Part shown: in pieces, positions 4,596 through 59,068 of the stretch
How positions within the stretch are numbered: position 1 is the stretch's first letter
Layout: each line of letters begins with the position of its first letter
Source of the DNA: an uncultured Planctomycetia bacterium
GTDB taxonomy: Bacteria; Omnitrophota; Gorgyraeia; Tantalellales; Tantalellaceae
Assembly: GCA_964572255.1 (NCBI GenBank)
Contig: CAZNEE010000002.1
Coordinates: 121,129 to 185,128, forward strand
DNA length: 64,000 bases
Direction of reading: 5' to 3'
Translations under genes and position numbers: made by a program
Notes under the pieces: model-generated
What the model saw: the letters and a program-made list of their open reading frames with translations, nothing else
What the model was told of the DNA's origin: nothing
The model's database searches: none

Positions 4596-5249
4596 TTATT
4601 CTCTTTCGCCAAATATCTTTGTTCCTATTCTAACAATATTCGCGCCTTCTTCAATAGCTATCTTATACGAATTTGTCATGCCCATGGAAAGATACTTCAT
4701 CTCAACATTCGGCATGTTCCCCTTTTTTATTTGATCGAATACTTTTTTTGTTTCGGTAAAGTACGGCCTTGCACCCTCGGGGTCTCCCGAAAATGGCCCC
4801 ATGGTCATGAGTCCGGCAACTTTTATATTCTTAAACGCGGATATTTCTTTCACGAGATCTGTCGCTTTTTCCGGAAAAACACCGAATTTCTGCTCTTCCC
4901 TCCCGCTATTAATTTCAACAAGAACCGGCATAACTTTATTTATCGCTTCGCATCTTTTATTGATCTCGTCCGCCAATTCTATTGAGTCCACCGTCTCTAT
5001 TAGATCGAAGACTTCAACAGCTTTTTTTACCTTCCTTCTCTGAAGATGCCCTATAAAATGCCACTTGACCTTCTTGCCGACCGCATTATATGCTTCAAGG
5101 GCTTCCTGCACATAATTTTCCCCGACAATTTTAATGCCCGCTTCAACGGCTTCTAAAACTTCATAAGGCGTTCTTGCTTTAGCCGCGGCAACAAGCTCTA
5201 CGCCTTGAGGAAGCTCGTCTAATATTCTCTTCACATTCTCTTTGATCAT
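4596..5249 (-). CDS. yggS: YggS family pyridoxal-phosphate homeostasis protein
   Basis: 217 aa; LVAAAKARTP...IVGENYVQE...HFIGHLQRRKVK...GMTNSY pattern of the YggS/PLPHP family. Confidence 0.8.
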   Translation of the reverse strand: MIKENVKRILDELPQGVELVAAAKARTPYEVLEAVEAGIKIVGENYVQEALEAYNAVGKKVKWHFIGHLQRRKVKKAVEVFDLIETVDSIELADEINKRCEAINKVMPVLVEINSGREEQKFGVFPEKATDLVKEISAFKNIKVAGLMTMGPFSGDPEGARPYFTETKKVFDQIKKGNMPNVEMKYLSMGMTNSYKIAIEEGANIVRIGTKIFGERE

Positions 5250-5315: not shown

Positions 5316-8300
5316 TTAAGCCGCTGCTCTGACTCCTAATTCCCTGTAAAATTCTTTCTTGAGGAGTTCTCTATCAATGGGCTCTGCTTTTGGCATGAAA
5401 GTAAATACCCTCGGGCTATCTTCATCAAACTCCAGCCCTATCTCGGGATAACTCTTCTTCAGTTCACTGATCAAGACTTCGAACGGTAAAACTTTATTAA
5501 AGGCAAGCTCTAAAGCCATGTTAATCATATCAACGATCCTTATGTAATTTTCTTCATTCCCATTCTCCGGCCGCTTATTGATCTGTTCAGGATCGATCCT
5601 CACCAAAAGCGCCCTGTCTCCCGTTTTAGGATCATGTAAAGGCTTGAACGCTTCTTCTTTTACTATATCCTCATGCCCTAAAACGATGATGTTCGAAAAG
5701 TTGACTTTTTTATTATCTGCTTCTTTCAGCAGCTGTCCGGCGAAATCATCCCCCTCTTTCCTGACAATATGGATATTTTTGATCCCGAGGCTTCCGGCGA
5801 TCCTGTATATCTCGCTTAAAAGCGGTTGTATTATATCGGCCTGTTCTTTTGGTATCCAGCTGGTCTCCAGCCCGATCATAATATTTTGTTCGTCATTTTT
5901 GACCCCCCCGCCAAGATCCCCATTTTTAACTTTATCGGCATAAAACCTGAGCATATCCATGAAAAGCATTGCCATCTCCTGAGCCCTGGTAAATTTGCCT
6001 TCTGTCCGCTTCCCTGCGGAAGGTTTATGTCTGATAAAATATAACGCGCTGTTATACACATGCTTGCTGTCCTTATAACTCGTTTCGACATCCATGATAT
6101 CGCCAGTGATCCCGCTCAATATTCTATATTTTCCGGCCGATCTGAGTATCTCGGCCACGGCGTCAATATCGCCCAGCTTTTCATCACGGGTTATGCACGG
6201 ATCATTCCATATCATCGCTATTCCATCATCATGGAGCATGACCGGCAATGCGCGGGCAAAGCGACTTAATGCGTCTCCCCCGATATCGCCGTCCCAATAG
6301 CTTGCAAGTTTTTTGTGCCAGGCGGGCACACTCTCTCCCGGCGAATCGATCAAGTTAGGCATGTTCCAGATGATCCTGTCGAAAACGCCGTCAAAAACAG
6401 GTTCTCCGTTTTCTGAAATTATATTATCATGGGTCACGGTCTCGATATCAAACCCGGCTATCTTAGCGGTCAGGCGAGTGTTTGCCGCTGCAAGCGGATT
6501 TATATCAACGGCATAGATCTTTCTGCCTGTTTTAAGATACGCTATCCAGCTGTCTATGCCCGAACCGGAACCCGCGATCAAGACCCTATGCCCCTTATCC
6601 AATCCTATATCATTCCACATAGCAGGGATTATCTTGGCATCAGAAACCGTCATTTCCGCCGGCGTATATACAGTGGGAAATACCGGGATAATGATCTTCT
6701 TTTTGCCTTCTTCTTCTTTAAAAATTCTTTCAAAATCCTGGTCGGATAATGTTTCCGGGGTAAAGGTCTGTATATCTATTTTTCCTGTCAGGGTATCAAC
6801 CCCGATATAATTATAGATATCTGTTTCCTGGCGGTTGAAATTTGAAATAAGCTGGCCTTGTCTTCTTCTCTCAGCGGCAAAAGAAAGCAGCAGCTTCTTG
6901 TCCGCATTCCTTCTTGTTATGAAATCTTTCCATTTCTGCGCGGCCTCAGGATCGGTCATATCGGGAAAAACAAAATTGTAAGGCGTAAGATCCAGATAAT
7001 AGATTTCATCCTGTGCGGGAGCGCCTTTGACAACAGGAAATATCCCTATTAAAAGACCCTGTTCATTATGTAAAAACTCGAATTCCCTTGTTTTCTCTCC
7101 GGCAAGTTCTCTATAAAGCACATCTAATCCGCGCGGAGTTCCGTACATCATAGATGTTTCGGGGATCCTTATCGTGCGAATGATGGTATTACTCCACCCT
7201 TGTCTTTCGGAAATTATACCGGCCTTATTGATCTCCAATGCCTGCAGGAACTCCCACGAAGCCATGTCTTTATAAAAAGCTGCGTCAGCCTCCTGCGCCT
7301 TGACCAATTTTGTTCCCGTTGCAACTGCTTCTTGTTTCTTGCCTGGAATGAAACGAACTTCAGATCTTATCTTTCCCTCGATATTGTCCAGTTCATCCAA
7401 AACATAATCACCAAAGATTTTTACTGCCTTTCCTTTTATGGGAACATCCGATACAACAAATGTACTGTCATCAAAAACTTTTATGAACTTATGAAAACGT
7501 TCTTTATTGTCAGTATCTTCGATATATACAGGAATTTTTTCCGCAGAATAAGCCTCTCCGACAACGGCTTCGAACGGTTTAAATCCCCTGTTTTTCCTTC
7601 TGAAATCAGGCCCTATATACTCATCTCCTTTCAGTTCAAAACCCAGATCTTCCACAACACTCACCAGGAAAGGATTCTGAACAAAAATGCCAAATTCTAT
7701 GTAGTAAGAACCGTTGTAAATAGCCCCCTGTTTCAGTCCGGACAACAGAACTTCCAGGAATGCCCGGGCGTACCCTCTATTCCTGTAAAGATTATCAACA
7801 AAAATACAATCGATTTCCGTGTCATTAAATCTGATATAACCAACAGGATCCCCATCCCCGCCGTAAAAATCCAGACTGCCATGATTCTCGGAAGACATGG
7901 GGAAATATTCGAAGAACAGTTTTTCATTATTGGGTGTAATAACATGCCCTGAGTAGCCTTCTTCTTCGAAAATGCTATTGCAGACTTCAGTTATTTCAAT
8001 AACCTCAGGATATTCCTCGGCAAAAGTCGCTGCTGTCAACCTTCTCTCTTTTAATGACCTCAAATAAGGCCCGACCATGATAGAACCAGTGTGATCGCCT
8101 TTCATCCAATAAGCGCCATCAATATAAGTAACAGGGGTATTATTCTCTAAAATAGCGACCCAATTATGCGTATAAGGCTTATCAAAGCCCCAATAATATC
8201 CTCCGACAACTTCCACTCGGCTGGGCGAATCCCCTCCCAATGGTAATCCATATTTCCTGGAAATGATCTCCGCCAGAGCTAAGGCGGAAATATAGCATTC

Positions 8301-11300
8301 TTTTACCGGGTATCCTTTTTTCACTTTTTGCCGCATAAGTTCCGTAAAACGATTTTCAATAGCTTTGAGATGCAAATACAAATTATCATCCGATGGCAGC
8401 ACTGAATGCGGATCTTGAACCTTGCCGTCACCGTAACCCGGAGGTCCGGGTTCGGATTTTAATTCGTTCTCTCCATCATACACCCTTATGCCCGAAGCCC
8501 AATCACTCTTATCGTACGGCCAAACTGTTACTTTCTTTCCTCCATGCCTAACTCCGATATAATATGGTTGCCCCATTAACGTTATGCTTCCATCTTTTCC
8601 GATCTTTCTTTCTGCAGGTATTGAGGGTTTTTTACGTACCACCTTTTTTCTCGGCTTTTTGACCATCTCATGCTTTTTACGTTTCTTTGTTCCTTTATTA
8701 TGGGAATTATAGCTCTCGATCAATCTTTCTACGGAATATTCTCCTGCAACTTCTTCCTCACTTTTTTCTTCCCCCTTCATCCTGTACCCAAGATGCGCGA
8801 CTTCATGGTTAAGCCATCTGGCATAAGAAACTAGATCATTTCTTCTGATCATTCCCAGAAATTCAAGAACTTTGCGCGGGATCAGCAGATTGCAGGAACG
8901 CGCAGCGCCATTTTCATCTCTCCAGGACCCGGGGTGAGTGATAAGTCTGAACGAACCTTTTTCCGGAAAAGAGATATTGCTTGTTTCTGCAAATTTATAA
9001 AGAACATCATAGAAATATTTCTCGGGGGGGCTATGTATATGGATCTCTTCTTCTATGCCCCTGCTTCTCATCTCGCTTAAGATATCTTGCCCTAATCCTT
9101 TTTCTGTTGAGATCTTATGATCTCTTTCAAATACATCCCAATAAACCCCCCATGTTTTATTGATAACGGCGTGCTGCTGGGCATTTAACACATACTGAAC
9201 CCATCTGCCGTCTTTTTTTACTAAAGCAATCGCGGGCGGATCATCGGAAGGAATGCCTTTTTTCTTATCCGATAACCTTGGCGATTCAGGCATTTTCCGT
9301 CCCCGGGAATAATTAAAACCTCTTCCATATCTGTCTCCGCTTCTTCTTTCTCCATCAATGTAAAACGTCAATTTCGGGCTGACTTCCTTGACTTTCACTG
9401 AGACAGCTTCACCTTCACTAAATCTTTTGCCTCCGCAAAGACTAAGGGGCATGAAACCTTTAACTTCTCCCTCATAAACAAGTTCATATCCCGCCAATGA
9501 ACCATCGCTCCTGCGGCGAGACTCTCTATTTACGAACACCTTAACTTCCTCTCCCGATCTCTCAGCTGCCTCCAATTCATACAATAGATCTCTTTTTCTT
9601 TCATTCGCCATCATCTGTCTTCGGCGAATAGAGAACCTGGGTTCGGGAATTATCCCCCTCCATTTACAATCGACGAGAACAACGTTCACTTTTCTGCCAA
9701 GCATATCATCAGGATTAGTTCCATAGGGGCATTCTCTCGAGCTAATGCGTCCTTTTATCTCCTTGAATTCAACCACGTAGTAGTCAAATTTGCCTCTATA
9801 ACTGTAATGATCTTCCACGATCTTGACCCTAAAAACTTTTTCAGGATCATCTTCCCCCTGCTTTATCTCTCTGATACCTAAATGATAATTAAAGACGGAT
9901 TTTGCTTTTTCGTCCAACTTGTCCAAAATAGCCTTTGATATTTTTTTATATTCATCTTCTTCTTTGCTGACCAAATAAGAAAACTCTGCGGGTTTTTCTA
10001 TTCTGCGCCTTGCATCAACAAACCTGTTCAAGTCCGCTTCTGCAATACAGTTTTCCGCTTTTCTTTTTGCTTTTGGCAAACCATGTTTTTTTAAATATAA
10101 AAAAGCCTCCAGGCTTGACAGCCTGCCTAAGCCGTCTATTTTCCCTTCAGCAGCCAACTTCATTCTTTCTTCGATCCTTTCATCTAAAAGGACTATTATC
10201 CTAATCTTTTCCCGGAAAAAAGCTTCCCTCTCTCCGAGCTTTAGGGCTTTCCATGCCCTATCGGAAAGTTTGAACTTATCACGTCTCCTGCTGTCGCTTT
10301 TCAGTAATTTACGTTCTTCCAAAAGGTCAATGACGTCTATAAGTTTGATCCGCTCATCATGAATCTTTTTCCTTACATGATCTCTCATTTCCCCTAAGAC
10401 ACGATCGGCTTCTTTCTTTGCATCTATTTCCGGCAATAATTCCGGGCGTTCATCCAAAACTTTATCGAGAAACACCGTAAAATGATCCGCCAGATCATCA
10501 TCACCCATGCTCCTAAGCTCTCCCAGGCGCCTGCGCATTTCATCAACCGCATAAGATGCTCTTTCAGGTTTCTCTTCACGTATAATCTCAAGGATATCAT
10601 TGAGCTCATCTCTCGTTCTTTCTCCCGAAGAATGAGTATCTTCACTTCCTTTATCCTTATCCGCGGGCTGGTCTGTGTGGGGCGTACCCGGGCCGAAACC
10701 GTCGGTCTTATCTTTATTGTACAAAACCTTAATGCTGAAATTTGGACTGCCCCCCTTTAAGGGGCCTGTCCTTCCGCTCAACATTATTTCTTTCACATCG
10801 GCGTTAAACTTTTCAGGAGCATCTCTCGGTATCCGCGGCTTGCCTCTTATTTCTATTAATACGTCTTCAACCGACTGAGCCACAACGCCGATTACCTTAT
10901 TCCCGATCTTAACGACCAGTTTTTCGTCTATTGTAATAACGGTGCCTTCCCTTAACTCTTTGACAAGCTCCAGTTCCTCTGTCCATTCATTACGTTCTAT
11001 CTTATATTTATTCTTTGTTCCTTCAACATGCTTTAAACGGAGATAAGCCAGCGGAAATACTGTTTCTATGTCTCTGATCTCGATCTCGCCCATCACATCA
11101 TAACTCCAGAAGCCTTCACCTGTCTTAGCGTCATTAATATCCTCGAAGCTTTGCCACTCCCGGCTTTTTTCGTAATTAAGAAGATCTCCGGAATAGAAAG
11201 TGACCTTTATTTCGTCAGCGAAATATTTTTTGAACACGTGTAGGTTATATAGCCAGGGTGTATCTATATAAATTTCATTGATCCCGTTTGTGACAGCAAA

Positions 11301-25881: not shown

Positions 25882-25904
25882 AGAAAAAAATATATCATGC
25901 TCAT

Positions 25905-26260
25905 CAAAGCAGATCTATAAGCCGGGTTCTGTAGGCGGAATTCACCGCCCGGCGATCATCCATCTGGGGCTTTCATTACTGAAAACCTCGTGCGGCCTAC
26001 CCGGAAGTTGTGACGAAGCTAGCCGCTTCGTTATCAGTCAATCCGCATGATTTTTCGGATTTTCCTGATTCCTCCCCTATTTGGCCTTGCTCCGCGTAGA
26101 GATTGCCGCGTTTCACTTCCGCATGCAAAAGCACGCTTACTCGTCTCTGTGGCTCTGATCCTCACCTTTTGGTGGACGGGCATTACCCGCTACGCTGCTA
26201 TATGGAGCCCGGACTTTCCTCCCCCTGCAAAAAGCAAAGAGCGATCACCCGATCTGCTTC
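25905..26260 (-). ncRNA. rnpB: RNase P RNA, bacterial type A
   Basis: The minus strand carries GGGGAGGAAAGUCCGGGCUCC (P4 5' strand), CGGAGCAAGGCCAAAUAGGGG and ACAGAACCCGGCUUAU (P4 3' strand). The P1 strands GAAGCAGAUC / GAUCUGCUU pair at the two ends. Confidence 0.85.
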
Positions 26261-27465: not shown

Positions 27466-27542
27466 TGGTGGGCGCAGGGGGACTCGAACCTCCGACCTCA
27501 TGCATGTGAGGCATGCGCTCTAACCAGCTGAGCTATGCGCCC
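27466..27542 (-). tRNA. tRNA-Val (anticodon CAC)
   Basis: Cloverleaf GGGCGCA-TAGCTCAGCTGGTTAGAGC-G-CATGC-CUCACAU-GCATG-...-TTCGAGT-...-TGCGCCC-A-CCA; 77 nt with CCA encoded. Confidence 0.8.
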
Positions 27543-27584: not shown

Positions 27585-27661
27585 TGGTGGGGGCACATGG
27601 ACTCGAACCATGAACCTACTGATTATGAGTCAGTTGCTCTAACCACTTGAGCTATGCCCCC
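27585..27661 (-). tRNA. tRNA-Met (anticodon CAT; elongator type, tRNA-Ile2 not excluded)
   Basis: GGGGGCA acceptor, anticodon loop CUCAUAA. The anticodon stem ACTGA/TCAGT lacks the three G-C pairs of initiator tRNA. Confidence 0.75.
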
Positions 27662-27698: not shown

Positions 27699-27787
27699 TT
27701 ATATTTGCAAGTAATAAAAAATAAGAAAAAATTTGACTTCTTTAGAAAATATGGTCCATTTTAAGAGAATATAAAGTTGTTCTTTCT

Positions 27788-27946
27788 AGCAGATTTTAAT
27801 CGTAAACTGTTCGCAAGAGCAGGACACAAAGCCAAAGGGGCTAAACAATGCTTTCAGCCAGCCGGCTGCCGATTGACACATCGTTAAAGTGTTGGCATAA
27901 GTATTGATCAGACCCAACCTTTCGATGGTTGGGTTTTTTGTTTTTT
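27788..27946 (+). promoter_or_regulatory. c-di-GMP-I (GEMM) riboswitch-like leader with intrinsic terminator, upstream of the first PEP-CTERM gene
   Basis: AAACUGUUC-GCAA-GAGCAGGACACAAAGCC...GGGGCUAAACAAUGC closely matches the Vibrio Vc2 aptamer (AAACCAUUC-GAAA-GAGUGGGACGCAAAGCC...GGCCUAAACCAUUGC). Followed by hairpin CCCAACC-UUUCGAU-GGUUGGG plus a U-tract. Confidence 0.7.
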
Positions 27947-28056
27947 ATAAGTAAAAAGTTTTTAAAAGGAGGTGATGAAAAATATTTCTTGCAAGTTTTT
28001 TTGCAGTTATATATAGGTAAGTTTTAAAAATCTAAGAAGAAAGTGAGGTGATAACG

Positions 28057-28659
28057 ATGAAGAAAATGTTGATCTTGATCTGTTTTGTATTAGCTATAGC
28101 GTTTATGGTAATACCATCGAAAGTTGAAGCTAGAACCATCGAAGATGATGAAGATATAGGCCCACCTCCTGGAACAGTACTCGAATATTGTGAGTGGTGG
28201 CCAAGTGAAACGGGTGACCCGGATTTTATAGATCTGAATTCTGGTGACAATTATTATGACCCTGAAACTGAAACTATCGTTTCAATGACAATCTCTGTTT
28301 GGGGAAGATCTAGCGATCAGCATGATGGTCAAGACAGCACAATTGAAGTATATATAGGCAGTACTGCTACTCCGGGGAGTCATTTGCAGCACGAGACCAT
28401 AACTCATGGCGATGAACTGGAGACAAAAACTATCACATTAAATGCTGCTGCTCTGGCCGATATCTCTGGAGACGGTAAAATAAACCTTAGATGGCACGGT
28501 CTTTCCGGAGGCGCAGGTGATCCTGACGGAGACACATTTGCTTTGGCTGGCTACCCTTCCTACGAAGCACATACCCCCGAACCGGCAACAATTATATCAC
28601 TACTTCTGGGCGGATTGGGAATGGCAGTAAAGAGGAAAAAGTTGTTCTTTAAGCAATAA
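28057..28659 (+). CDS. secreted PEP-CTERM sorting-signal protein
   Basis: GAGGTG sits 6 nt upstream of ATG at 28057. Signal peptide MKKMLILICFVLAIAFMVIPSKVEA, acidic mature region, and C-terminal TPEPATIISLLLGGLGMAVKRKK (PEP motif, hydrophobic helix, basic tail). Confidence 0.75.
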   Translation: MKKMLILICFVLAIAFMVIPSKVEARTIEDDEDIGPPPGTVLEYCEWWPSETGDPDFIDLNSGDNYYDPETETIVSMTISVWGRSSDQHDGQDSTIEVYIGSTATPGSHLQHETITHGDELETKTITLNAAALADISGDGKINLRWHGLSGGAGDPDGDTFALAGYPSYEAHTPEPATIISLLLGGLGMAVKRKKLFFKQ

Positions 28660-28707
28660 TTATATTTATTAAAAGAAATATTTAAAGGAAGGAGTTGTGA
28701 CAATAAA

Positions 28708-28741
28708 AAAGCGGCTTCCGATGGAAGCCGCTTTTTTATGT
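28708..28741. terminator. bidirectional intrinsic terminator hairpin (AAAAAGCGGCTTCC-GATG-GAAGCCGCTTTTTT)
   Basis: Perfect GC-rich stem flanked by an A-tract and a T-tract. Lies between the convergent PEP-CTERM gene and the small polylysine ORF. Confidence 0.7.
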
Positions 28742-28760: not shown

Positions 28761-28874
28761 TTACTTTTTCTTTCTCTTTTTCTTTGCAGCTTTTTTCTTT
28801 TTCTTTACAACTTTTTTCTTTTTCTTTGCTACTTTTTTCTTTGCAGCTTTTTTCTTTTTCTTCTTTACTACCAT
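28761..28874 (-). CDS. 37-aa polylysine micro-protein (MVVKKKKKKAAKKKVAKKKKKVVKKKKKAAKKKRKKK)
   Basis: Minus-strand ORF with strong RBS GAGGAGGGG 5 nt upstream of ATG. Built from a ~21-nt tandem nucleotide repeat and followed by the terminator at 28708-28741. Too short for the ORF track. Confidence 0.45.
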   Translation of the reverse strand: MVVKKKKKKAAKKKVAKKKKKVVKKKKKAAKKKRKKK

Positions 28875-30970: not shown

Positions 30971-32347
30971 CTACTTTTCATCGAAATGCGTTAGATCGCG
31001 TTTTCCGACAGCATAAACATTAAACCCTAGATCATGCAATTTTTTACGATCGAGTATGTTCCTCCCGTCAAATATAAAAGCCGGTTTTTTCATGGAATCA
31101 TAAATGCGCTGATAATCCAGATCCCTGTATTCTTCCCATTCAGTAAGCACGACCACTGCATGAGCTTTCCGGCAAGCTTCATATGGGTCTTCTATGAACC
31201 ATATGGTGTCAGCACCGAACGCTAGATCATTTTTAGCGTTATCTAATGCTTGAGGGTCACTGACAACTATTTTGGCTTTTTCTTCGTACAGCCACTTGCA
31301 TATATCTATCGCGGGGCTTTCGCGGGTATCGCCCGTATCGGCTTTAAAGGCAAAACCCAAAACAGCTATCTTTTTGTCGGCAACATTATTGAACATGCCT
31401 GAGATTATGCGCCTTAAAAAACGTTTTTTCTGGTAATCGTTCATTTGAACGACCTGCTGCCAGTAATTCGCCACCTCGATAAGCCCGAAATGTTCGCAAA
31501 GGTAAACAAGATTTAAAATGTCTTTTTTGAAACATGACCCGCCGAAACCAATGCTTGATTTAAGGAATTTAGACCCTATACGTGAATCCATGCCTATTGC
31601 CCTGGAAACCTCATCGACGTCCGCTTCTGTAGCTTCGCATAAAGCGGAGATACTGTTTATCGAACTTATTTTCTGGGCAAGAAAAGCGTTTGCGGTAAGC
31701 TTGGACAGTTCGCTTGACCACAGATTGGTCGTTATTATGCGTTCTTCAGGGACCCAGTGCTTATAAATTTCCGCAATCTGCTGTACAGCCTTCTTCCCTT
31801 TTTCTGAATCATGGCCGCCTATCAAGACCCTGTCAGGATTCTCCAAGTCGCTGATCGCCGTCCCTTCCGCGAGAAACTCAGGATTGGACACGACTTCAAA
31901 ATGTACGCCTGATTTTCCGGAGTTAAGTATGTGCTCCATAGCTTCGGCTGTTCTTACGGGCAGGGTGCTTTTCTCGACAACTATTTTATCCTTTGTGGAC
32001 CGTTTAAGTATTTCTCTGGCGGTTTTCTCCCAATACTGCAGGTCCGCTGCCATCCCCGCGCCTTCACCGAAAGTCTTTGTGGGCGTATTCACGCTTACGA
32101 AAATGATATCCGCTTTATCGATATTCCCCGGCACATCCGATGAAAAGAAAAGGTTTTTGTTCAACGTCTCCTGCACGGCTTCCTTGAGACCCGGTTCATA
32201 GATCGGGGGGTTGCCGGATTGCCACTGGTTTATACGTTCTTCATTTATATCCACAACTATCACTTTATAATCCGGGCACTTTTTGGCGATAACGGCCATT
32301 GTGGGGCCGCCGACATAACCCGCTCCGATACACACTATAGTTTTCAT
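30971..32347 (-). CDS. ugd: UDP-glucose 6-dehydrogenase
   Basis: NAD motif [11 protein letters not shown], catalytic [10 protein letters not shown]; 458 aa. Confidence 0.85.
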
Positions 32348-46027: not shown

Positions 46028-46103
46028 TGGTGGAGCTGAGGGGGATCGAACCCCTGACCTTCTGATTGCGAACCAGACGCTCTTCCAGCTGAGCTACAGC
46101 CCC
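46028..46103 (-). tRNA. tRNA-Ala (anticodon CGC)
   Basis: GGGGCUG acceptor with the G3:U70 identity pair; anticodon loop UUCGCAA; CCA encoded. Confidence 0.85.
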
Positions 46104-49606: not shown

Positions 49607-52057
49607 TCAGTGGCCCCGGTTCAATGCTTTCAATAATTTGACTTTTTCTTTCGCGATTTCCGCTTCCTCGCCTTCGCCTTCGGCAAGCTTGCGGTATATC
49701 TTGAAGGCTCTTTCACTTTGCCCCATTCTCTCCAATAATTCCGCACATTTAAGTCTTGCTCTTATAACCCAGAACTTTCCTTGCGGATATTGATACTCAA
49801 CCCTCAGATATTCTTCCACGGCTTTTTCTTCTTCGCCGCTTTTTTCCAGACACTCAGCGATATCAAACTGTATCTGCGCGTTGAGCTCCGAATTCTCGGA
49901 TGTAAGAGCGACCCTGAAATATTCCCTCGCCAGTTCATATTTGTCTTGTGCTTTCAGTATGGTCCCGATCCTATTGTTCGCTATATTTGTCGCGTCACTT
50001 TCCGGGTACTTGCGTATCAGAAGTTCGTACTGACCGATAGCTTTCTTAGTGTCTCCCCGTTTTCTTAAAATATCACCTGTCGTTAATACGGCCTTTGGAG
50101 CCCACTCGCTGTCGGGATAATCTCCGGCCACAGTTTCAAACTCTTTTATGCTTTCATCCGTCATGCCTCTGTCGTAAAGAACCAAGCCCATCCAATACCG
50201 CGCTTCTATAGACAATGAACTGTGAGGATAATCTTTCAGAAGTTCGGAAAAATATTTCTGTGATTCAGCCAGGTTGCCTTTAGTGTAATAGTATTCTCCG
50301 AACCATATTTTTATCCCCGGGATGACCTTGCTGTCAGTATTTTCCTTAAGGATGCTTTTGAACACCTCAAGCGCTTTTTTTTCATTTCCCGTCTTGTAAT
50401 AGGCCCATCCCATTTGATAACGGGATTTTAAAAGAAGTTCTTTATCCTTTGAAGATGAGACCAATGTGTTGTATATCTTCAGAGACTGTTCATAATCTCC
50501 GCTGTTATATAACGAATTGGCTTTATGCAAATAAGATTCATTAACGAGATCGCTTTGGGGAAATCCCTTAATGATGCGGTCGAACTGTTCGACCGAAGTA
50601 CGGTAATCGCCTTTTTTTGAATAAAGAAGCCCGAGCTGATAATAAGCTTTATCCAACATGCGGGAATTCGGAAAGTTTACGATCAGGGATTGAAATGCCA
50701 GTATTGCGGCATCATCCAATTCCTTCTTCTCCAGGATGGACCCTACCTGATACTGGGCATAATCAGCCCATAAACTATTCGGATAATCTTTAAGAACTAT
50801 ATCAAAAGCGTCGATCGCCCTATCATCTTCTCCGCGCATTTCAAAAATATTACCCATATTGCAGAGCGCGTTGACGATTATATCCTCGTTCCCGGAAGAC
50901 TGAGCGGTTAGCTTGAATTCCTTAAGAGCATTTTCTCCATCTCCTAAAGTGTTATATGCCCAGCCGAGAGTGTAATGTATGCTCCCCAGAAATTCGCTTT
51001 GAGGAAAATTCTCTAAAGCCTTGTTGTACAGTTTCACCACATCCTGTGTTTTTCCGTTTTTATACAATAATTCTCCAAGCAGATAATACGCATCATCCGT
51101 CCACTCGTTCAGGGGATAATCGTTTATGATCTGTTCGTATATTTCAACCGCTTTTTCGGTTTGGCCGCTTTCGGCGCGTATTTTCGCTATCCCGATCATT
51201 GCAAGACTTTTCACTTCAGGATCATTAGCTTCTTGCTCAACTTTTCCGAACCATTCCTCGCTTGAGGTGTAGTTCTTGACCTCCTGGTAAGCGTGTGCCA
51301 ATTTAAGCATGGCTGATATTTTCCAGGGCTGAGCGGTAGGAGCTTGAAGGGATTTTTTTAGATTATCCGCGGCATCCTTAAAATCTCCTTCATTGTAAAG
51401 GCTGTCCCCTAACATAAAGTAGGCATCAAATATCCTTTCATTAACCGGATAATCCTTGATAAACTCCTCAAGTTCACCCGCCGCATAATGAAACCTGCCG
51501 AGTTTATACAGAATCTCTGCTGACTTATATTTGGCTTTAACGGCAAGTTCACTATCGGGATACTTAACGGTAACTTCCTTGAATGATTCCATGGCCGCGC
51601 CATATTCACCCAATTTTTCATAACACCATGCCTGTGAATAAAGAGAATACGGCACGAATTCGCTCATCGGATACTTCTCTATTACGTCCTGATACATCGC
51701 GAGGGCCTGCTCGAAATTATTTTCCCTGAAATACACTTCAGCGATCCAGTATGCCGCCTGGGCGACAACACCGCTTTCATCAAACCCTTGAAGGATGAAT
51801 TCGAATTCCATAAGAGCTTTGCGGTAAAGACCTTTTTCAAAATACACCCTGCCCAATAATAGATGCGCTTCTATCTGGATCTCTTCGGGGGCATCCATGC
51901 CAAGCAGCATGTTGAGCTTGCTCTCAGCCATGTCATAAAAACCGTCCTTTACGGCTTTTTGAGCGACATCGATCTCTGAGCGGAACTCTTCCTGCGCAAA
52001 ACTTCCGGATATACAAATTGCGATGAAAAGAGTTGTGAATAGTATAATTTTTTTCAT
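49607..52057 (-). CDS. large secreted TPR-repeat protein
   Basis: Signal peptide followed by TPR-like repeats across 816 aa. Confidence 0.75.
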   Translation of the reverse strand: MKKIILFTTLFIAICISGSFAQEEFRSEIDVAQKAVKDGFYDMAESKLNMLLGMDAPEEIQIEAHLLLGRVYFEKGLYRKALMEFEFILQGFDESGVVAQAAYWIAEVYFRENNFEQALAMYQDVIEKYPMSEFVPYSLYSQAWCYEKLGEYGAAMESFKEVTVKYPDSELAVKAKYKSAEILYKLGRFHYAAGELEEFIKDYPVNERIFDAYFMLGDSLYNEGDFKDAADNLKKSLQAPTAQPWKISAMLKLAHAYQEVKNYTSSEEWFGKVEQEANDPEVKSLAMIGIAKIRAESGQTEKAVEIYEQIINDYPLNEWTDDAYYLLGELLYKNGKTQDVVKLYNKALENFPQSEFLGSIHYTLGWAYNTLGDGENALKEFKLTAQSSGNEDIIVNALCNMGNIFEMRGEDDRAIDAFDIVLKDYPNSLWADYAQYQVGSILEKKELDDAAILAFQSLIVNFPNSRMLDKAYYQLGLLYSKKGDYRTSVEQFDRIIKGFPQSDLVNESYLHKANSLYNSGDYEQSLKIYNTLVSSSKDKELLLKSRYQMGWAYYKTGNEKKALEVFKSILKENTDSKVIPGIKIWFGEYYYTKGNLAESQKYFSELLKDYPHSSLSIEARYWMGLVLYDRGMTDESIKEFETVAGDYPDSEWAPKAVLTTGDILRKRGDTKKAIGQYELLIRKYPESDATNIANNRIGTILKAQDKYELAREYFRVALTSENSELNAQIQFDIAECLEKSGEEEKAVEEYLRVEYQYPQGKFWVIRARLKCAELLERMGQSERAFKIYRKLAEGEGEEAEIAKEKVKLLKALNRGH

Positions 52058-52185
52058 GTTTTATGGGCTAGATAGCTTATGGGCTAAATATAGTATTATA
52101 TATAGGCTAATAATAACCTATATAACGACTATTTATAGTAGCAAATTACGGATTTTCGTTCAAGATAATTTTAATTTAGGTAGGC

Positions 52186-52229
52186 TAAAAGAAGAGAAAG
52201 GCCCATCATCCCATTGCCTGATGGGCCCT
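52186..52229 (-). terminator. intrinsic terminator downstream of the second PEP-CTERM gene
   Basis: On the minus strand: GGCCCAUCA-ggcaauggga-UGAUGGGCC followed by UUUCUCUUCUUUU. Confidence 0.55.
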
Positions 52230-52268
52230 TCTCATATTAAATCAGCATCTATAATATTGCCTTCTTCG

Positions 52269-52862
52269 TTAACTTGTAAACTTTTTTACTGCCGTTCCTA
52301 ATAAAGCAAGGCCTAACATCACCATGCTTGCGGGTTCCGGAGATCCATAAATACCTCGTGCGGCACCTCCCTCGTCACTAATTGCTGCCGCTCCGACCCC
52401 GAAATAATAGGGCGAACTGCCCGCTTCCGGTACGACAAATGTATCGAACCCTTCTTGTTTTCCGACCAAGCTCACAACATCAGAATCAACCAATGTTAAT
52501 GTGCTATCCATCAATACAAAAACAACTGCATCGCCGAACTGTTCGTTATTCGAGTACCATTTGTAATTGATTACATCCCCTACTGAAAAAGAGGTAGGTG
52601 CAACATTGAACACCCCTTCATTAACAGTGGTAATTTTAAATATCGCCATATGTTCCGTATGATCAGCTTCATCTGAATCTTCAGGTGACTTTTCAACAGA
52701 TACACTTGGTCCGTTAGGTGCCCAATTTGTCATGTCGCGCATTTCTAAAAGAATATTACTCAATCCGAGCTCCCACATATTATATGTCGCAGCTTCAGCA
52801 CAAATTGTTAACGCAAATAATAGTGCAATAAACAATATAAAAGCTAAACAACATTTCTTCAT
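52269..52862 (-). CDS. secreted PEP-CTERM sorting-signal protein, paralog 2
   Basis: Same RBS/start context as the 28057 gene (GAGGTG 6 nt upstream of ATG). Signal peptide MKKCCLAFILFIALLFALTICAEA. C-terminal SPEPASMVMLGLALLGTAVKK. Confidence 0.75.
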   Translation of the reverse strand: MKKCCLAFILFIALLFALTICAEAATYNMWELGLSNILLEMRDMTNWAPNGPSVSVEKSPEDSDEADHTEHMAIFKITTVNEGVFNVAPTSFSVGDVINYKWYSNNEQFGDAVVFVLMDSTLTLVDSDVVSLVGKQEGFDTFVVPEAGSSPYYFGVGAAAISDEGGAARGIYGSPEPASMVMLGLALLGTAVKKFTS

Positions 52863-52892
52863 CATTCTCACCTCACTTTCTTTTTAGATTTT

Positions 52893-53046
52893 AAAAAACA
52901 AAAACCCAACCATCGAAAGGTTGGGTTACTGATTTTCTCCAACACTTTAACGATGTGTTAATCGGCAGCCGGCTGGCTAATTTCTTTCCTAGCCCCTTTG
53001 GCTTTGTTGCCCCGTTCTTCCGAACGGTTTACGATTAAAATCTGTC
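52893..53046 (-). promoter_or_regulatory. c-di-GMP-I (GEMM) riboswitch-like leader with intrinsic terminator, copy 2
   Basis: Minus strand: AAACCGUUC-GGAA-GAACGGGGCAACAAAGCC...GGGGCUA..., then ACCCAACCUUUCGAUGGUUGGGUUUUUGUUUUUU. The P2 stem shows compensatory changes relative to copy 1. Confidence 0.7.
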
Positions 53047-53136
53047 AAAAAAAACACTAACTTTATAATCGTTTAAAGTATAGCATATCCTTCTAAGAAT
53101 GCAAGTTCTTATAAAAAAATAAGTTAACAGAATTTG

Positions 53137-55935
53137 TTAAGATTTATGCAGTACTTTTTTTAAGTAAGATCCGGTGAAAGAACTTTGACAGGAAGCGACT
53201 TCCTCAGGTGTCCCGCTGGCAATTATTTCGCCGCCTTTGTCCCCTCCTTCAGGTCCGAGGTCTATGATATGATCCGCGCTCTTTATGACATCAAGGTTAT
53301 GTTCTATGACCAGCACTGTATTTCCTGAAGAAACAAGTGTGTGCAGAACATCCAGCAGCTTATGAATATCGGCAAAATGCAATCCGGTTGTCGGTTCGTC
53401 AAGAATATACAGTGTCTTGCCCGTAGCAGTTCTTGAAAGCTCTTTCGATAATTTCACTCTTTGAGCTTCGCCGCCGGACAATGTTGTCGCCTGTTGACCT
53501 AATCTGATATAACCCAAGCCAACTTCATGAAGTCTTTGTAATTTACTTCTTATCGGGGGGATATTTTCAAACACTTTGAGAGCGTCTTCAACACTAAGTT
53601 CGAGAACTTCAGAAATATTATACCCTTTGTACCTTATCTCAAGAGTCTGATCATTAAACCGCTTGCCGTTACATACCTGACACTGCACGTATACATCCGG
53701 CAGGAAATGCATCTCTATTTTTTTTACCCCGTCACCCTGGCATGCTTCGCACCTTCCGCCTTTTACATTAAAACTGAACCTTCCCGGTTTATATCCTCGC
53801 ATGCGTGATTCGGGAAGTTCGCTGAACAGTTTCCTTATGTGGTCGAACGCGCCTGTATATGTCGCGGGATTGGACCTGGGCGTTCTTCCTATCGGGGACT
53901 GGTCTATTACTATAACTTTATCAATATGTTGGATCCCCTTGATGCGTTTATGTTTGCCCGGCGCGGTTTTCGCTTTATACATCTTTCTTGCCAGCGCTCT
54001 ATAAAGTATTTCATCTACAAGCGTGCTCTTACCTGAACCTGAAACTCCGGTTACGCAAATAAATAGTCCCAGAGGTATTTTTACATCAATACTTTTTAGA
54101 TTGTGTTCAGCCGCCTCGATTATTTCCAAACATTTACCAGATGCACATTTTCGTCTTTCGGACGGAAACTCTATTTTCAAATCACCTCTAAGATATTTAC
54201 CTGTGAGCGAATCTTTGGATCTGAGTATTTTTTCCAAGTCGCCTTCCGCTACTATTTTACCGCCGTGTTCGCCGGCGCCGGGCCCAAGATCTATCACATG
54301 ATCCGCGCGGCGTATCGTGGACTCATCGTGTTCAACAACAATAAGTGTATTACCCAGATCTCTTAGAGCTATCAATGTATCGAGAAGTTTGCCGTTATCT
54401 TTCTGATGAAGGCCTATACTCGGCTCATCCAGAACATAAAGCACCCCGACAAGACCCGCGCCTATCTGGGTAGCTAATCTGATACGCTGGTCCTCTCCCC
54501 CTGAAAGTGTGTTGCTTTTTCTGTCCAGGGTTAAATAATCAAGGCCGACATTCGACATGAAATCCAATCTTGCCTTTACTTCTTTCGTGACCTCTTTTGC
54601 GATGCGTTTCTCTGTCTCATTTAATTCGATCTCAGAGAAATATTTTTTCGCCGCTGAAATCGACATCTCGCACATGTCAGAAATATTCTTATCTCCTATA
54701 AGAACGGAAAGTGACTCGGCCCTCAAACGCTGCCCTTTACATTCCGGACATGGCTGGACCGACATAAATAAGCCTATCATCTCTTTCATGAAATCGCTTT
54801 CCGTCTGGTGAAATCTTCTTTCTAAATTGGGTATTACACCTTCGAATCCGGATTCATCATCACCATAAAGCACTATTCTTTTTTGTTTCGCACTTAAATC
54901 TTTGAAAGGCATGTTAAAATCAAACCCATAATATCTCGCTAAACGTCTGATCTGGCGCCTGAAATGAAGTACTATTCCCTTCCCGCCGCGTTTCCATGGG
55001 ACTACCGCCCTGAGCAAAGATTCGGATTCATCCGGCACGATCAGTTCAGGATCTATCTCCATCTTATTTCCGAGACCATTGCACGTGGGACATGCGCCGT
55101 AGGGGCTATTAAACGAAAAATTCCGCGGCGCAAGTTTTTCGAAACTTATACCGCATTCAATGCAGGAATTCTGTTCGCTGAAAAGTATGTCATTTTCAAT
55201 GCGCTTCTCATCTTCCGCCGGTGAAACGATCATGGTTCCTTCGCCTAATTTGAGCGCCATTTCAACCGAATCGGATACTCTTGTGCGTATTCCCTCCTTG
55301 ATCGTCAATCTGTCCACGACTGCTTCAATAGTATGCTTAACCTTCTTATTCAGATCCGGTATCCTGTCCCCGATATCGACTATTTTTCCGTCGAGGCGGA
55401 TCCTTATCAGGCCCTGTTTCCTTATATCCTTCATGACCTCTACATGCTCGCCTTTTCTCCCTCTTATGATCGGAGAAAGGATCAATATCTTCGTCCCTTT
55501 GGGCAGTTCTAAAACCCTGTCAACGATCTGTTGCGAAGTCTGACCGGATATCGGTTTCCCGCATTTCGGGCAATGCTGCACGCCTATCCTTGCAAAAAGA
55601 AGCCTTAGGTAATCGTAAATTTCTGTCTGCGTTCCGACCGTAGAGCGGGGATTTCTGCCTCCGGACCTTTGTTCTATACTTATCGTGGGGGAAAGTCCTT
55701 CGATATAATCGACATGAGGTTTTTGAAGCTGCTCGAGGAACTGGCGCGCGTAACTTGAAAGGGATTCTATGTACCGCCTTTGCCCTTCGGCATATACAGT
55801 ATCAAACGCAAGAGAAGATTTTCCCGAACCTGAAAGTCCCGTAACAACGCTCAGCTTGTCCCGGGGGATCATTACATCTATATCTTTAAGATTATGTTCT
55901 TTCGCGCCTTTTACAAATATATGGTCTTTTCTCAT
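53137..55935 (-). CDS. uvrA: excinuclease ABC subunit A
   Basis: 932 aa; two ABC ATPase modules ([10 protein letters not shown] and [10 protein letters not shown]) and zinc-finger cysteines. Confidence 0.95.
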
Positions 55936-56773: not shown

Positions 56774-57127
56774 ATGGAAAAGAAAAGGCTTTTGATCTGT
56801 GACGATGAGATCGGGATAAGAGAATCCCTTAAACTTATACTCGAAAGTGATTACGATCTGGACTTCGCGTCAAACGGGGATGAAGTTATGGAAAAAATAA
56901 AGAACAGCCGGTTCGACGGCATTCTTCTTGACGTAAAAATGCCGGAAAAAGACGGGCTGGAAACACTTCAGGAAATAAAACAGTTTTCACCGGAGATGAA
57001 GATCATTGTTGTCACCGGATACAAAACGGTTGAAGCGGCCTCGAAAGCGATAAAACTCGGCGCGATGGATTATATTACTAAACCATTTGCCGAAAAAGAG
57101 GTAAGAGAAAAAGTCTCAAAGATATAG
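56774..57127 (+). CDS. stand-alone response regulator receiver (CheY-like)
   Basis: LLICDDE...ILLDVKMPEKDGLE...IIVVTGY...K REC motifs. Confidence 0.8.
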   Translation: MEKKRLLICDDEIGIRESLKLILESDYDLDFASNGDEVMEKIKNSRFDGILLDVKMPEKDGLETLQEIKQFSPEMKIIVVTGYKTVEAASKAIKLGAMDYITKPFAEKEVREKVSKI

Positions 57128-57174
57128 ATATCCACCCTCCGGCATATTTCATGTTCCGATACCGGTAAGCTGAA

Positions 57175-58533
57175 TTATTCCTCTATTTTGCTGTTCAGAT
57201 TGAATCTTCCTTTACGGTAGGCCAGAAGAAAAGCGCTCACGACTATGGGGTCAAATTGCGTGCCCGCGGCATCCTTTATTATCTGGACAGCGACCTCGGA
57301 CATGCTCCTCTGCCTGTACGGCCTGTCGCTGGTTATCGCGTCAAACGTATCCGCCACGGCTATTATCCGGGCTATGAACGGTATATCTTCACTCTTCAGC
57401 CCGTCCGGATATCCGGTCCCGTCATACCTTTCATGATGCGCGCGTATCTCATCAGCTATGTTCCCGAGCTCCCTTATGGAATAAAGGATAGAAGAGCCCG
57501 TTGAAGGATGCTCCTTGACCCTCTCGTATTCTTCTTTTGTCAGCTGACCGTTCTTGTTCAGGATGCTGTCGGGAACGCCGACCTTGCCTACATCATGAAG
57601 AAGAGCCGATAAATGCAGTGTTTCTATGAAATTCTTATATTCGTTAGCCTCAGGGAGGTCTTTCAGTTCATTTGCCAGTACCAGCGAGTACTGGGTAACC
57701 CTCTCAGTATGTCCGTGCGTGTAAGGATCCCTTGAATCTATCGCGGCGGCAAGAGAGATCGAGGTCCTGATGAACACGTCATGTTCCTTCTCATAAAGGT
57801 TGTGTATCTCGTATATCTTGTCCTCGAGGTCCTGAATGAGCTGGGTGTTGGCAAGCGCCATGGCGGCGTCATTGGCCAGGGTCGTGAAAAAGCCTATCTC
57901 CTGCCTCGAATAAGTTTCTCCCGAAAGTTTTCTGCCGAGAAGGAATATTCCGCTCAGATCTTTCCCGCAATATACAGGCACGCATATATTCGCCTTCAAC
58001 AGCTCCATCTGCCTGAGCGCCCTTTTTACAAGCTCGGCGAGCGCGGGGCTCTTTACGATATGCTCGTTCTTGTCAAAAGAATCGATAAGTTTATCATAAT
58101 CAACAGCCTGGGTAAAAGATACCTTATAGTTAATGCTTTCGTTAAAAAAACGTATCAAGGGGTCCTTCAACGTAAGTTTTATAAAACCGACGGGTATCTT
58201 GATGCCTTCCGCGCCGACACTGTCAATAAGGGTAAAAGTATCTCCCGATTTGTTCCTTAAAAGCATTGCCGTATGAGTTACCTGGACCTGCTCGTCAATG
58301 CTCTTAGTGATCATCCTGATGAGCTTTTCGGGTTTTTTAATGCGCAGCATCCCGCGCGAAACGTTCTCGAGCACGACCTGGTAGTCACGTTCGGGCTTCG
58401 GCCTCTGGAGGACCTCATGGCTTTCTATAGCCGGGGGGACATCCTCCGAATGCCTGATCTTCTCTGCTATCCAGTCCTGCAATTTAAGCCAGTTAGTATT
58501 CTCTTCGGGCATTTTCTCTTCCGATCGCTTCAA
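57175..58533 (-). CDS. HD-GYP domain c-di-GMP phosphodiesterase with N-terminal GAF-like domain
   Basis: HGHTERV...LHDVGK...HHERYDGTGYP (HD and GYP signatures). Confidence 0.85.
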   Translation of the reverse strand: MKRSEEKMPEENTNWLKLQDWIAEKIRHSEDVPPAIESHEVLQRPKPERDYQVVLENVSRGMLRIKKPEKLIRMITKSIDEQVQVTHTAMLLRNKSGDTFTLIDSVGAEGIKIPVGFIKLTLKDPLIRFFNESINYKVSFTQAVDYDKLIDSFDKNEHIVKSPALAELVKRALRQMELLKANICVPVYCGKDLSGIFLLGRKLSGETYSRQEIGFFTTLANDAAMALANTQLIQDLEDKIYEIHNLYEKEHDVFIRTSISLAAAIDSRDPYTHGHTERVTQYSLVLANELKDLPEANEYKNFIETLHLSALLHDVGKVGVPDSILNKNGQLTKEEYERVKEHPSTGSSILYSIRELGNIADEIRAHHERYDGTGYPDGLKSEDIPFIARIIAVADTFDAITSDRPYRQRSMSEVAVQIIKDAAGTQFDPIVVSAFLLAYRKGRFNLNSKIEE

Positions 58534-58910
58534 GTGTTACTATTGATCCTGATATTATCCGCCGCGCTCAGAACTGTTCTTTCAAGATGGTCGAGTAAAA
58601 GCGGTTTTGTAATGTATTCTATAGCGCCTAATTTTTTGGTTTCTTCTATCTTGCCGGCATCTCTAACGCCGCTTACAATTATGACACTGCAATTATTCCC
58701 AGTTTTCCTTATCTCTTTCAATGTCTCGATGCCGTTCATGATCGGCATATTTATATCCAAAATAACTATTTCGGGATTCTCGGCCTCGACCAGCCGTATC
58801 GCCTCTTTCCCGTTATGGGCCATGAAGGTCTGAAAATCCCTTTCCCTGAAGAAAGTTTTCAGGAAATCACATATATCAACTTCGTCATCGACGATCAATA
58901 TCTTTATCAT
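58530..58910 (-). CDS. response regulator receiver domain protein
   Basis: MIKILIVDDEV...ILDINMPIMNG...VSGVRD. Start set at the ATG that overlaps the upstream stop (ATGA). Confidence 0.75.
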   Translation of the reverse strand: MIKILIVDDEVDICDFLKTFFRERDFQTFMAHNGKEAIRLVEAENPEIVILDINMPIMNGIETLKEIRKTGNNCSVIIVSGVRDAGKIEETKKLGAIEYITKPLLLDHLERTVLSAADNIRINSNT

Positions 58911-59068
58911 CTGTTCTCCTGATCCTCGATCCATTTGTCAATCGTTTCTCTCTTGAAACGCCATTTTGACCCTACTTTGAAGGCGGGAATTTTCCCCTCT
59001 TGAGCGTGCTTATAGATCGTAGCGTTTTTCATCTTAAGATATTCAGCTACTTCTTCTACCGTCATCAT
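58907..59068 (-). CDS. excisionase-family (AlpA/Xis-like, MerR superfamily) HTH DNA-binding protein, 53 aa
   Basis: MMTVEEVAEYLKMKNATIYKHAQEGKIPAFKVGSKWRFKRETIDKWIEDQENR fits the 'helix-turn-helix, excisionase family' pattern. Its stop overlaps the receiver gene start. Too short for the ORF track. Confidence 0.5.
   Translation of the reverse strand: MMTVEEVAEYLKMKNATIYKHAQEGKIPAFKVGSKWRFKRETIDKWIEDQENR

Follow-up and report, generated by a model that had tools for sequence, protein, structure and literature searches.

In a 64,000-nucleotide stretch of DNA from an uncultured bacterium of the Omnitrophota (assembly GCA_964572255.1, contig CAZNEE010000002.1, positions 121,129 to 185,128; hereafter the window), we describe what are probably two paralogous and self-contained cassettes, A and B, in which a conserved riboswitch leader module acting as an ON switch precedes an exchangeable gene for a PEP-CTERM protein. 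Each cassette would consist of a weak promoter-like region, a cyclic di-GMP (c-di-GMP)-I-type aptamer, an anti-terminator/terminator platform, a block with a Shine-Dalgarno (SD) sequence and ATG-AAG-AAA, a gene for one small, secreted orphan protein of the PEP-CTERM type, and a terminator at its end. The first-pass annotation of this DNA had suggested a portable leader plus signal-peptide module. The leader through the first codons is indeed a conserved module placed before unrelated PEP-CTERM open reading frames (ORFs), but the signal peptide has to be excluded from it.

The DNA shared by the two copies covers 27721-28071 in copy A and 53112-52849 in copy B, at about 80% identity in a local alignment. 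The likeness starts at the putative −35 hexamers and ends at about codon 5 of the ORFs. These limits replace the interval proposed at first (27727-28110 against 52800-53128), which had counted the signal peptide as a member of the duplicated module; the signal-peptide DNA lies outside the repeat, while the remainder of the duplicated layout—two aptamers, an identical terminator, a shared ribosome-binding site (RBS)/start block and promoter hexamers in register—stands. In both copies, the conserved parts follow one another in the order aptamer, 28-nt segment, 27-nt terminator and RBS/start block. The 27-nt terminator core, ACCCAACCTTTCGATGGTTGGGTTTTT, occurs exactly twice in the window (27912-27938 on the plus strand and 52926-52900 on the minus strand) and in none of 100 shuffles, consistent with the identical terminator described before. 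The block with a five-nucleotide spacing around the start codon, AAGAAAGTGAGGTGA-N5-ATGAAGAAA, likewise occurs exactly twice (28037-28065, plus; 52882-52854, minus; 0 in 100 shuffles). Further upstream, the hexamers TTGACT and TTGCAT are in register between the copies, in line with the same spacing that the first-pass annotation had noted; the −10 candidates are a plausible TGn-TATACT extended −10 in copy B and only TCCATT in copy A. Local nhmmer and blastn searches revealed no further or partial leader copies in the window or in the loci retrieved for comparison.

The Rfam scan over the whole window, with a gathering score of 35 bits for RF01051, identified exactly two c-di-GMP-I aptamers, one in each leader, in agreement with the GEMM-like aptamers noted at first (scores in Table 1). 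Both matches are full-length (model positions 1-87 of 87), and RF01051 is the best family within clan CL00126. Leaders from strain variants score similarly, with 47.9 bits for locus L014 and 48.3 bits for loci L015 and L019. Of the 17 pairs that the Rfam model places in P1b, P2 and P3, aptamers A and B have all in canonical form, and a third leader variant, C, which is carried by L014, has 16; these pairs were counted by script, because MAFFT alignments could not accommodate a couple of compensating 1-nt indels (two in number) of aptamer A. Across the three leader variants, the P2 tetraloop takes three GNRA forms (GCAA, GGAA and GAAA), two pairs show compensatory double changes (P2-2, U-A to C-G; P3a-3, C-G to U-A), one further pair shows a wobble change, and the equivalents of two ligand contacts, A47, which intercalates, and C92, which forms a Watson-Crick pair with the second guanine, are kept in A, B and C. 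The aptamer is therefore under selection across the leader variants.

One ligand contact departs from the family. Positions were mapped by the G20–A47 spacing of 27 nt, which is given for Vc2 and Vc1 in PMC4744006, and model position 11, corresponding to G20 of Vc2, is C in all of the variants (27801, 53033, L014 and L015), in place of the G of RF01051. This C can pair with the G of GCCGAUU, which yields a P1 helix, UUAAUC/GAUURA, directly abutting P1b. The putative c-di-GMP regulation of both cassettes rests on family membership. About 4 kb from cassette B lies a gene for an HD_5 (HD-GYP-type) protein (57175-58533, minus strand), flanked by two stand-alone receiver-domain proteins (56774-58934); this set is a candidate c-di-GMP phosphodiesterase module, and its presence makes c-di-GMP turnover plausible. 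The same HD_5/receiver arrangement by uvrA is conserved in relatives without the riboswitch cassette. As judged from sequence, c-di-GMP is the most probable ligand, given that no model of the clan scores better than the canonical one and that a gene of the HD-GYP type lies close by.

How might the leader control transcription? In folding calculations, the anti-terminator ATCGTTAAAGTGTTGG pairs with part of the terminator, CCAACCTTTCGAT, at −7.9 to −9.0 kcal/mol. In nascent-transcript folding, AUCGUUAAAGUGUUGG pairs with the 5′ arm and loop of the terminator, CCAACCUUUCGAU, and thereby competes with the terminator. The computed energies are −8 to −9 kcal/mol for the anti-terminator, −14 to −15 for the terminator, −6.5 to −8.8 for the duplex that breaks the aptamer and about −4 for hairpin H1. 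The GUGUUGG core has two alternative partners, the 3′ strand of aptamer helix P3, AGCCAGCC (−6.5 to −8.8 kcal/mol), and UURACAC (about −4 kcal/mol). The anti-terminator is the minimum-free-energy structure of the nascent transcripts, and in copy A it is so solely with the aptamer locked. It has no overlap with the P1 3′ strand; such an overlap is the usual layout of OFF switches. Because the anti-terminator lies off the P1 3′ strand and can be sequestered by the unfolded aptamer, the modelling points with some confidence to an ON switch, in which the ligand permits read-through.

We propose the following course of events. In the ligand-free leader, the GUGUUGG core would be caught either by the P3 3′ strand or in the hairpin UURACAC/GUGUUGG, the terminator would form, and transcription would halt. 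Upon binding of the cyclic dinucleotide, the aptamer and P1 would be locked, which would leave AUCGUUAAAGUGUUGG free to capture the terminator 5′ arm and loop and allow RNA polymerase to read through. Surface or matrix proteins would accordingly be made at high c-di-GMP, and an exosortase whose gene lies elsewhere in the genome would presumably process them.

In contrast to the leaders, the proteins encoded behind them differ. BLASTP finds only the 21-aa PEP-CTERM tail in common between ORF A and ORF B, in line with the differing mature regions noted earlier, and at the sequence level the two ORFs are unrelated rather than merely diverged. With the DNA likeness ending at about codon 5, the leader pair is also not part of a segmental duplication that covers the coding region, one possibility on which the first-pass annotation would have fallen. 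Both N-termini are hydrophobic and contain Cys, as had been claimed; the signal sequences, read by eye, are MKKMLILICFVLAIAFMVIPSKVEA/R in A and MMKKCCLAFILFIALLFALTICAEA/A in B. The C-terminal tails are TPEP-ATIISLLLGGLGMAV-KRKK in A and SPEP-ASMVMLGLALLGTAV-KK in B. In a word-indexed search of 5.8e9 proteins, each protein matched only itself. An exhaustive HMMER search with A yielded three weak relatives, two of which (P0124 and P0125; 188 and 194 aa) are clear PEP-CTERM proteins that share LNAAALADLxADGxL, end in VPEP...RRK tails and pass TIGR02595; their nearest relation, below the cut-off, is to the flocculation protein PepA. An AlphaFold2 model of A from the single sequence is beta-rich and unreliable (pLDDT 53). 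A strong hairpin terminator follows each ORF, which would make each unit monocistronic and self-contained.

Further evidence for exchange of the cargo comes from the surroundings of cassette B, which separates uvrA from a TPR gene. In five Omnitrophota relatives with 79-81% UvrA identity (L011, L012, L013, L022 and L023/L024), uvrA is followed by a spacer of 60-334 nt, the TPR gene (808-825 aa), exbB and exbD, and the spacer contains neither an aptamer nor a small ORF. The spacer of L022, a longer one at 334 nt, was checked in its own right and has no aptamer inside. The 1.08 kb at 53136-52058 is thus lineage-specific. Within the population, L014 equals the window at 100% over about 6.4 kb, diverges sharply from 53206, 70 nt before the uvrA stop, and runs on into leader variant C, whose terminator and RBS block are unchanged while its ORF starts differently (MNKLFI...). 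Leaders B and C are 88.8% identical, as compared to 78-80% for A–B and A–C, which led us to reject the idea that the cassette variants at the uvrA site stand as far apart from one another as they do from paralogue A. L019 matches the window without a difference across uvrA, the complete leader, the RBS and the first six codons, and diverges from 52844, with 65% aa identity over 37 residues of its ORF B allele. The break thus lies in the uvrA tail in L014 and L015, and at the leader/ORF junction in L019. Three UvrA alleles of the population (P0003, P0004 and P0005) differ only in their last 21 residues, which indicates that the uvrA 3′ end (53137-53206) is a recurrent recombination boundary for a variable cassette; the contig of P0005 ends at the stop codon of uvrA. 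Breaks inside cassette B are seen in four independent assemblies, and locus A, including ORF A, is invariant in six assemblies.

The likeness between A and B, and that between B and L019, is lost at about codons 5-6, which supports a conserved leader with exchangeable cargo. The modularity suggested by the first-pass annotation gains a presence/absence polymorphism against the relatives and a recombination junction at the module boundary, as one would expect of a mobile or portable cassette. Cassette B would be an insertion peculiar to this lineage, lying between uvrA and the TPR gene, that was then replaced or diversified in the population by homologous recombination, with crossovers at the uvrA 3′ end and at the leader/ORF junction. 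We also rejected a mechanism of the diversity-generating retroelement (DGR) type for the variation of ORF B, since L019 shows substitutions of every type and the window has no reverse transcriptase. As a separate observation, L023, a relative that comes from the same series of samples, carries a bAvd/23S_rRNA_IVP-type gene (a DGR accessory gene; 4875-5237) near uvrA, with no counterpart in the window. P0006 was rejected as the closest non-conspecific UvrA, since it is an unrelated UvrA paralogue of double length.

Copy A and variant C, unlike copy B, carry an insert before the RBS. The mini-ORF in the insert of copy A encodes MKNISCKFFCSYI, followed by a stop. The insert of variant C is 108 nt long (L014, about 7055-7162) and 53% identical to that of copy A, and the SD-like sequence GGAGGTGA is common to both.

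Table 1. Features of cassettes A and B (window coordinates).
Feature	Position	Strand	Evidence and remarks
Leader A, upstream part: putative −35 TTGACT (27733-27738) and common AT-rich stretch to the aptamer	27721..27790	+	~69% identity to 53112-53044 of copy B; promoter role putative
Aptamer A, c-di-GMP-I type, GCAA tetraloop; C at G20 position, 27801; A47 equivalent, 27828; C92 equivalent, 27869	27791..27873	+	RF01051, 58.7 bits
28-nt segment A, GCCGATTGACACATCGTTAAAGTGTTGG: P1 3′ strand (GATTGA), then predicted anti-terminator ATCGTTAAAGTGTTGG (27880-27895)	27868..27895	+	same in A, B and variant C except one G/A position
Intrinsic terminator of leader A: 10-bp stem, 7-nt loop, U-tract	27910..27946	+	terminator scan; hairpin −15.4 kcal/mol
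88-nt insert, within the window in copy A only: extra SD-like AAGGAGGTGA, 13-codon mini-ORF, TTGCAA...TATATA promoter-like stretch	27939..28026	+	gap in the A/B alignment, between terminator and RBS
RBS/start block A, AAAATCTAAGAAGAAAGTGAGGTGATAACG-ATG-AAG-AAA; A/B likeness ends here	28027..28071	+	matches copy B at 33 of 36 nt
ORF A, 200 aa: signal peptide, acidic beta-rich domain, PEP-CTERM tail (PEP-x15-KRKK)	28057..28659	+	TIGR02595, 24.3 bits (cut-off 16)
Strong hairpin terminator closing cassette A	28700..28741	+	−25.9 kcal/mol, z = −6.5, then U6
Whole cassette B, lineage-specific insertion between uvrA (53137-55935) and TPR gene (49607-52057)	52058..53136	−	~1.08 kb; absent from five relatives
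Leader B, upstream part: putative −35 TTGCAT (53104-53099), TGC-TATACT extended −10-like	53044..53112	−	alignment with copy A and variant C; function putative
Aptamer B, c-di-GMP-I type, GGAA tetraloop; C at G20 position, 53033	52961..53043	−	RF01051, 48.3 bits; modelled pairs all canonical; compensatory P2 pair relative to A
28-nt segment B with predicted anti-terminator (52954-52939)	52939..52966	−	matches copy A at 27 of 28 nt
Intrinsic terminator of leader B	52893..52927	−	terminator scan; −14.3 kcal/mol; core as in copy A
RBS/start block B, abutting the terminator U-tract, no insert	52849..52892	−	pattern search and alignment; L019 divergence from 52844, directly after the block
ORF B, 197 aa (198 aa from the upstream ATG at 52865, the gene callers' choice): signal peptide, Asn/aromatic-rich domain, PEP-CTERM tail (PEP-x15-KK)	52269..52862	−	PF07589, 20.8 bits (cut-off 20.7)
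Hairpin terminator closing cassette B	52186..52233	−	15-bp stem, then U-rich tract

Several observations weigh against our interpretation. In copies B and C, the anti-terminator is predicted with the aptamer locked or free, and as these folds are alike in both states, the ON call depends on a kinetic argument. With 100% conservation of the platform across the variants, no covariation is available to support the anti-terminator or P1. The putative −35 boxes of both leaders are not called by a simple sigma-70 scan, and the 64 kb contain only two leader copies. With C at the G20 ligand contact, c-di-GMP as the ligand is not assured. Finally, no exosortase-like ORF exists among the proteins of the 64-kb window, just as the first-pass annotation had stated, and the scores of the hidden Markov models (HMMs) are marginal: A lies above TIGR02595 and below PF07589 (17.3 against 20.7 bits), while B is barely above PF07589 and below TIGR02595 (14.3 against 16). 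The PEP-x(15-20)-KK sorting signals described at first are therefore sound in motif architecture, with PEP-x15-K(R)KK and PEP-x15-KK, but marginal in score, with one model passed by each protein.

The leader could, on part of this evidence, be an OFF switch. The ligand would then stabilize P1 and the adjoining ACAC/GUGU hairpin through coaxial stacking, the anti-terminator would be sequestered, and the terminator would form at high c-di-GMP. This small hairpin lies directly next to the P1 3′ strand and is compatible with the folded aptamer, and the anti-terminator of B and C as the default nascent fold without the aptamer constraint is what one expects if the ligand-free state means read-through. 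Moreover, published class I riboswitches act both ways, and Vc2 5′ of tfoY is called an off-switch in bioRxiv 10.1101/617340. However, the hairpin of the locked-aptamer state reaches only −1.8 to −3.1 kcal/mol, as compared to −8 to −9 kcal/mol for the anti-terminator; the free state of copy A sequesters GUGUUGG, which its locked state releases; and a shut-off of surface or matrix proteins at high c-di-GMP would be biologically unusual. We consider an OFF switch rather unlikely. A second question is whether the aptamer senses another cyclic dinucleotide, such as 3′3′-cyclic GMP-AMP (cGAMP), or is promiscuous, since the G20 contact is C in every variant. In the canonical aptamer, G20 recognises the ligand's first guanine at its Hoogsteen edge, and A in its place leads to cGAMP or dual specificity (PMC6140456). 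The context AAUC followed by GU resembles the AAUA followed by C of the Geobacter cGAMP riboswitch Gs1761 (residues in PMC7288161), and families of binding-site variants already exist in Rfam, in the same clan. On the other side, the canonical RF01051 model gives the top score in the clan, the equivalents of A47 and C92 are kept, a gene of the HD-GYP type lies close by, and A47 is known to be better conserved than either G20 or C92 (PMC9049102). No evidence for a cGAMP synthase (DncV/Hypr-GGDEF) turned up, none having been sought. On balance, a ligand other than c-di-GMP seems quite improbable.

The cargo and the modularity also allow other explanations. The C-terminal tails might be plain membrane anchors in a lineage without a PEP-CTERM/exosortase system, which would fit the lack of an exosortase in the window and the narrow passing of only one model by each protein, as well as the fact that we found no substantive literature report of exosortase/PEP-CTERM systems in Omnitrophota. 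Nevertheless, both tails have the full succession of PEP, a 15-residue hydrophobic helix and a basic cluster and can be aligned with each other, and the only relatives of A include the clear PEP-CTERM proteins with tails that pass TIGR02595. We regard plain anchors as improbable. Alternatively, nothing may be modular: A and B would be old paralogues whose leaders are kept alike by purifying selection on the riboswitch, terminator and RBS, and the strain differences at uvrA would reflect generic recombination at a variable surface-protein locus. The most conserved blocks are indeed functional elements, the 89% identity of B and C against 78-80% to A is what one would expect of alleles that diverged at a single locus, one of the breakpoints falls within uvrA, outside the leader, and locus A is without variation. 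Selection on functional elements does not readily explain why the A/B alignment also takes in the unstructured spacer 5′ of the aptamer and the spacer before the RBS, nor why A against B and B against L019 lose their likeness at the same point; in addition, the ORFs are unrelated rather than diverged, and cassette B is a gained insertion. This account seems unlikely to us, and we retain a conserved leader module with exchangeable PEP-CTERM cargo under a probable ON switch.

The association of riboswitch and PEP-CTERM gene is already known. In Methylophaga nitratireducenticrescens GP59, four c-di-GMP riboswitches each lie 5′ of a PEP-CTERM/VPLPA-CTERM gene (PMC12530212). As there, several class I riboswitches occur in one genome, each directly 5′ of a PEP-CTERM-type gene; the four units of GP59, however, lie within 18 kb amid exopolysaccharide genes, whereas the two units described here are 25 kb apart on opposite strands, among housekeeping genes and with no exopolysaccharide or exosortase genes nearby, and one of them is a strain-variable insertion. 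The aptamers share with the RF01051 members Vc2 and Vc1 of V. cholerae the P2 helix with a GNRA tetraloop, the P3 helix with its receptor and the equivalents of A47 and C92, at 48-59 bits against 35, as well as the placement: they lie in the 5′ leaders of genes whose products relate to the surface or the environment, with an intrinsic terminator behind them. They differ in the C at G20, in a P1 that apparently abuts P1b with no obvious 5-nt linker, and in their Omnitrophota host, where the role of the ligand is drawn from the sequence. The cGAMP riboswitches of Geobacter (GEMM-Ib, Gs1761) have the same fold, a non-G at position 20 and a similar AAU-N context, but A in place of the C found here, and evidence for cGAMP signalling is lacking here within the scope stated above. 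In the 2015 work of Kellenberger and of Nelson, Geobacter GEMM-Ib leaders reportedly occur in many paralogous copies per genome, before diverse genes for extracellular proteins. With PepA (NCBIfam NF033554) and the PEP-CTERM/exosortase system, the proteins share the signal peptide, small beta-rich domain, PEP motif, hydrophobic helix and basic cluster; unlike PepA-type proteins, ORFs A and B fall below every subfamily cut-off, their basic cluster is rich in Lys rather than Arg, and neither the cognate exosortase nor regulators of the PrsK/PrsR type were located. The concept of a PEP-CTERM/exosortase system goes back to Haft 2006 (summarised in PMC7726332). New here are the phylum, the orphan cargo proteins, the dispersed placement on opposite strands, the gained and recombining insertion, and the C at position 20.

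The best named homologues of the UvrA are all from metagenome-assembled genomes of Candidatus Omnitrophota/Omnitrophica. The window forms part of a 498-kb ENA metagenome contig (ERZ27256770:k141_130128), and its DNA recurs in the JGI samples Ga0180433, Ga0180437 and Ga0180438. The platform 20-mer ACACATCGTTAAAGTGTTGG had a single match in the genome-contig collection, in a Muribaculaceae contig without an aptamer, which we attribute to chance; the gapped anti-terminator/terminator pattern matched only two unrelated loci in the metagenome contigs (L009 and L010), and two scans of viral contigs gave nothing. The lineage seems to be absent from the scanned contig collections.

ORF A is the only sizeable plus-strand gene amid a run of minus-strand genes from 299 to 55935. 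Directly 5′ of leader A and divergent from it lie two tRNA genes (27469-27542 and 27588-27661, both minus), with a promoter-like site, TTGCAA-N18-TATAAT, at 27710-27681 (minus); a third tRNA gene is found at 46031-46103 (minus), and a bacterial class A RNase P RNA at 25902-26260 (minus; 216.6 bits). Just 3′ of cassette A, a tandem-repeat tract at 28761-28874 (minus) contains a 37-aa ORF of nearly pure Lys/Ala/Val (MVVKKKKKKAAKKKVAKKKKK...). L001 is 54 nt shorter at this tract, so the repeat number varies between samples. In the UDP-glucose 6-dehydrogenase gene (30971-32347, minus), about 35 single-nucleotide polymorphisms cluster at 31500-32500 in L002, L004, L005 and L006, as compared to ~99.9% identity elsewhere, which looks like a recombined patch in a sugar-nucleotide gene. 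The multi-transmembrane proteins of the window are a spermidine-synthase-like protein, FeoB, TauE, PgpA and a CDP-alcohol phosphatidyltransferase. A 758-aa protein (16713-18989, minus) combines a spermidine/spermine synthase domain with about 13 transmembrane segments, as predicted. A giant ORF of 3767 aa (5316-16619, minus) contains pentapeptide repeats at about residues 380-505 and a C-terminal HemK/MTQ2-like methyltransferase region at about residues 3308-3473, with all matches below the family cut-offs.

These cassettes leave current concepts unchanged: c-di-GMP riboswitches, their link with PEP-CTERM genes and variable surface-protein loci are already known, and no new mechanism is involved. 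They would provide a clean natural case of a riboswitch leader as a reusable module, in which the regulatory part is kept and the cargo replaced, in a phylum known from metagenomes only and with species-specific orphans as the cargo. The consistent C at the G20 contact would offer a defined natural variant for work on ligand selectivity. We can only speculate, with low confidence, that the leader doubles as a recombination anchor for swapping or diversifying c-di-GMP-controlled surface PEP-CTERM proteins in a possibly host-dependent Omnitrophota bacterium—a population-level variation of antigens or adhesins—and that the C20 aptamer is a natural GEMM-I binding-site variant with altered cyclic-dinucleotide selectivity. 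The strain mosaics point to selection or recombination acting on the surface-protein part while the sensor is preserved, which suggests that these small PEP-CTERM proteins may be of ecological importance, for instance for attachment, for forming a matrix or for interacting with a host.

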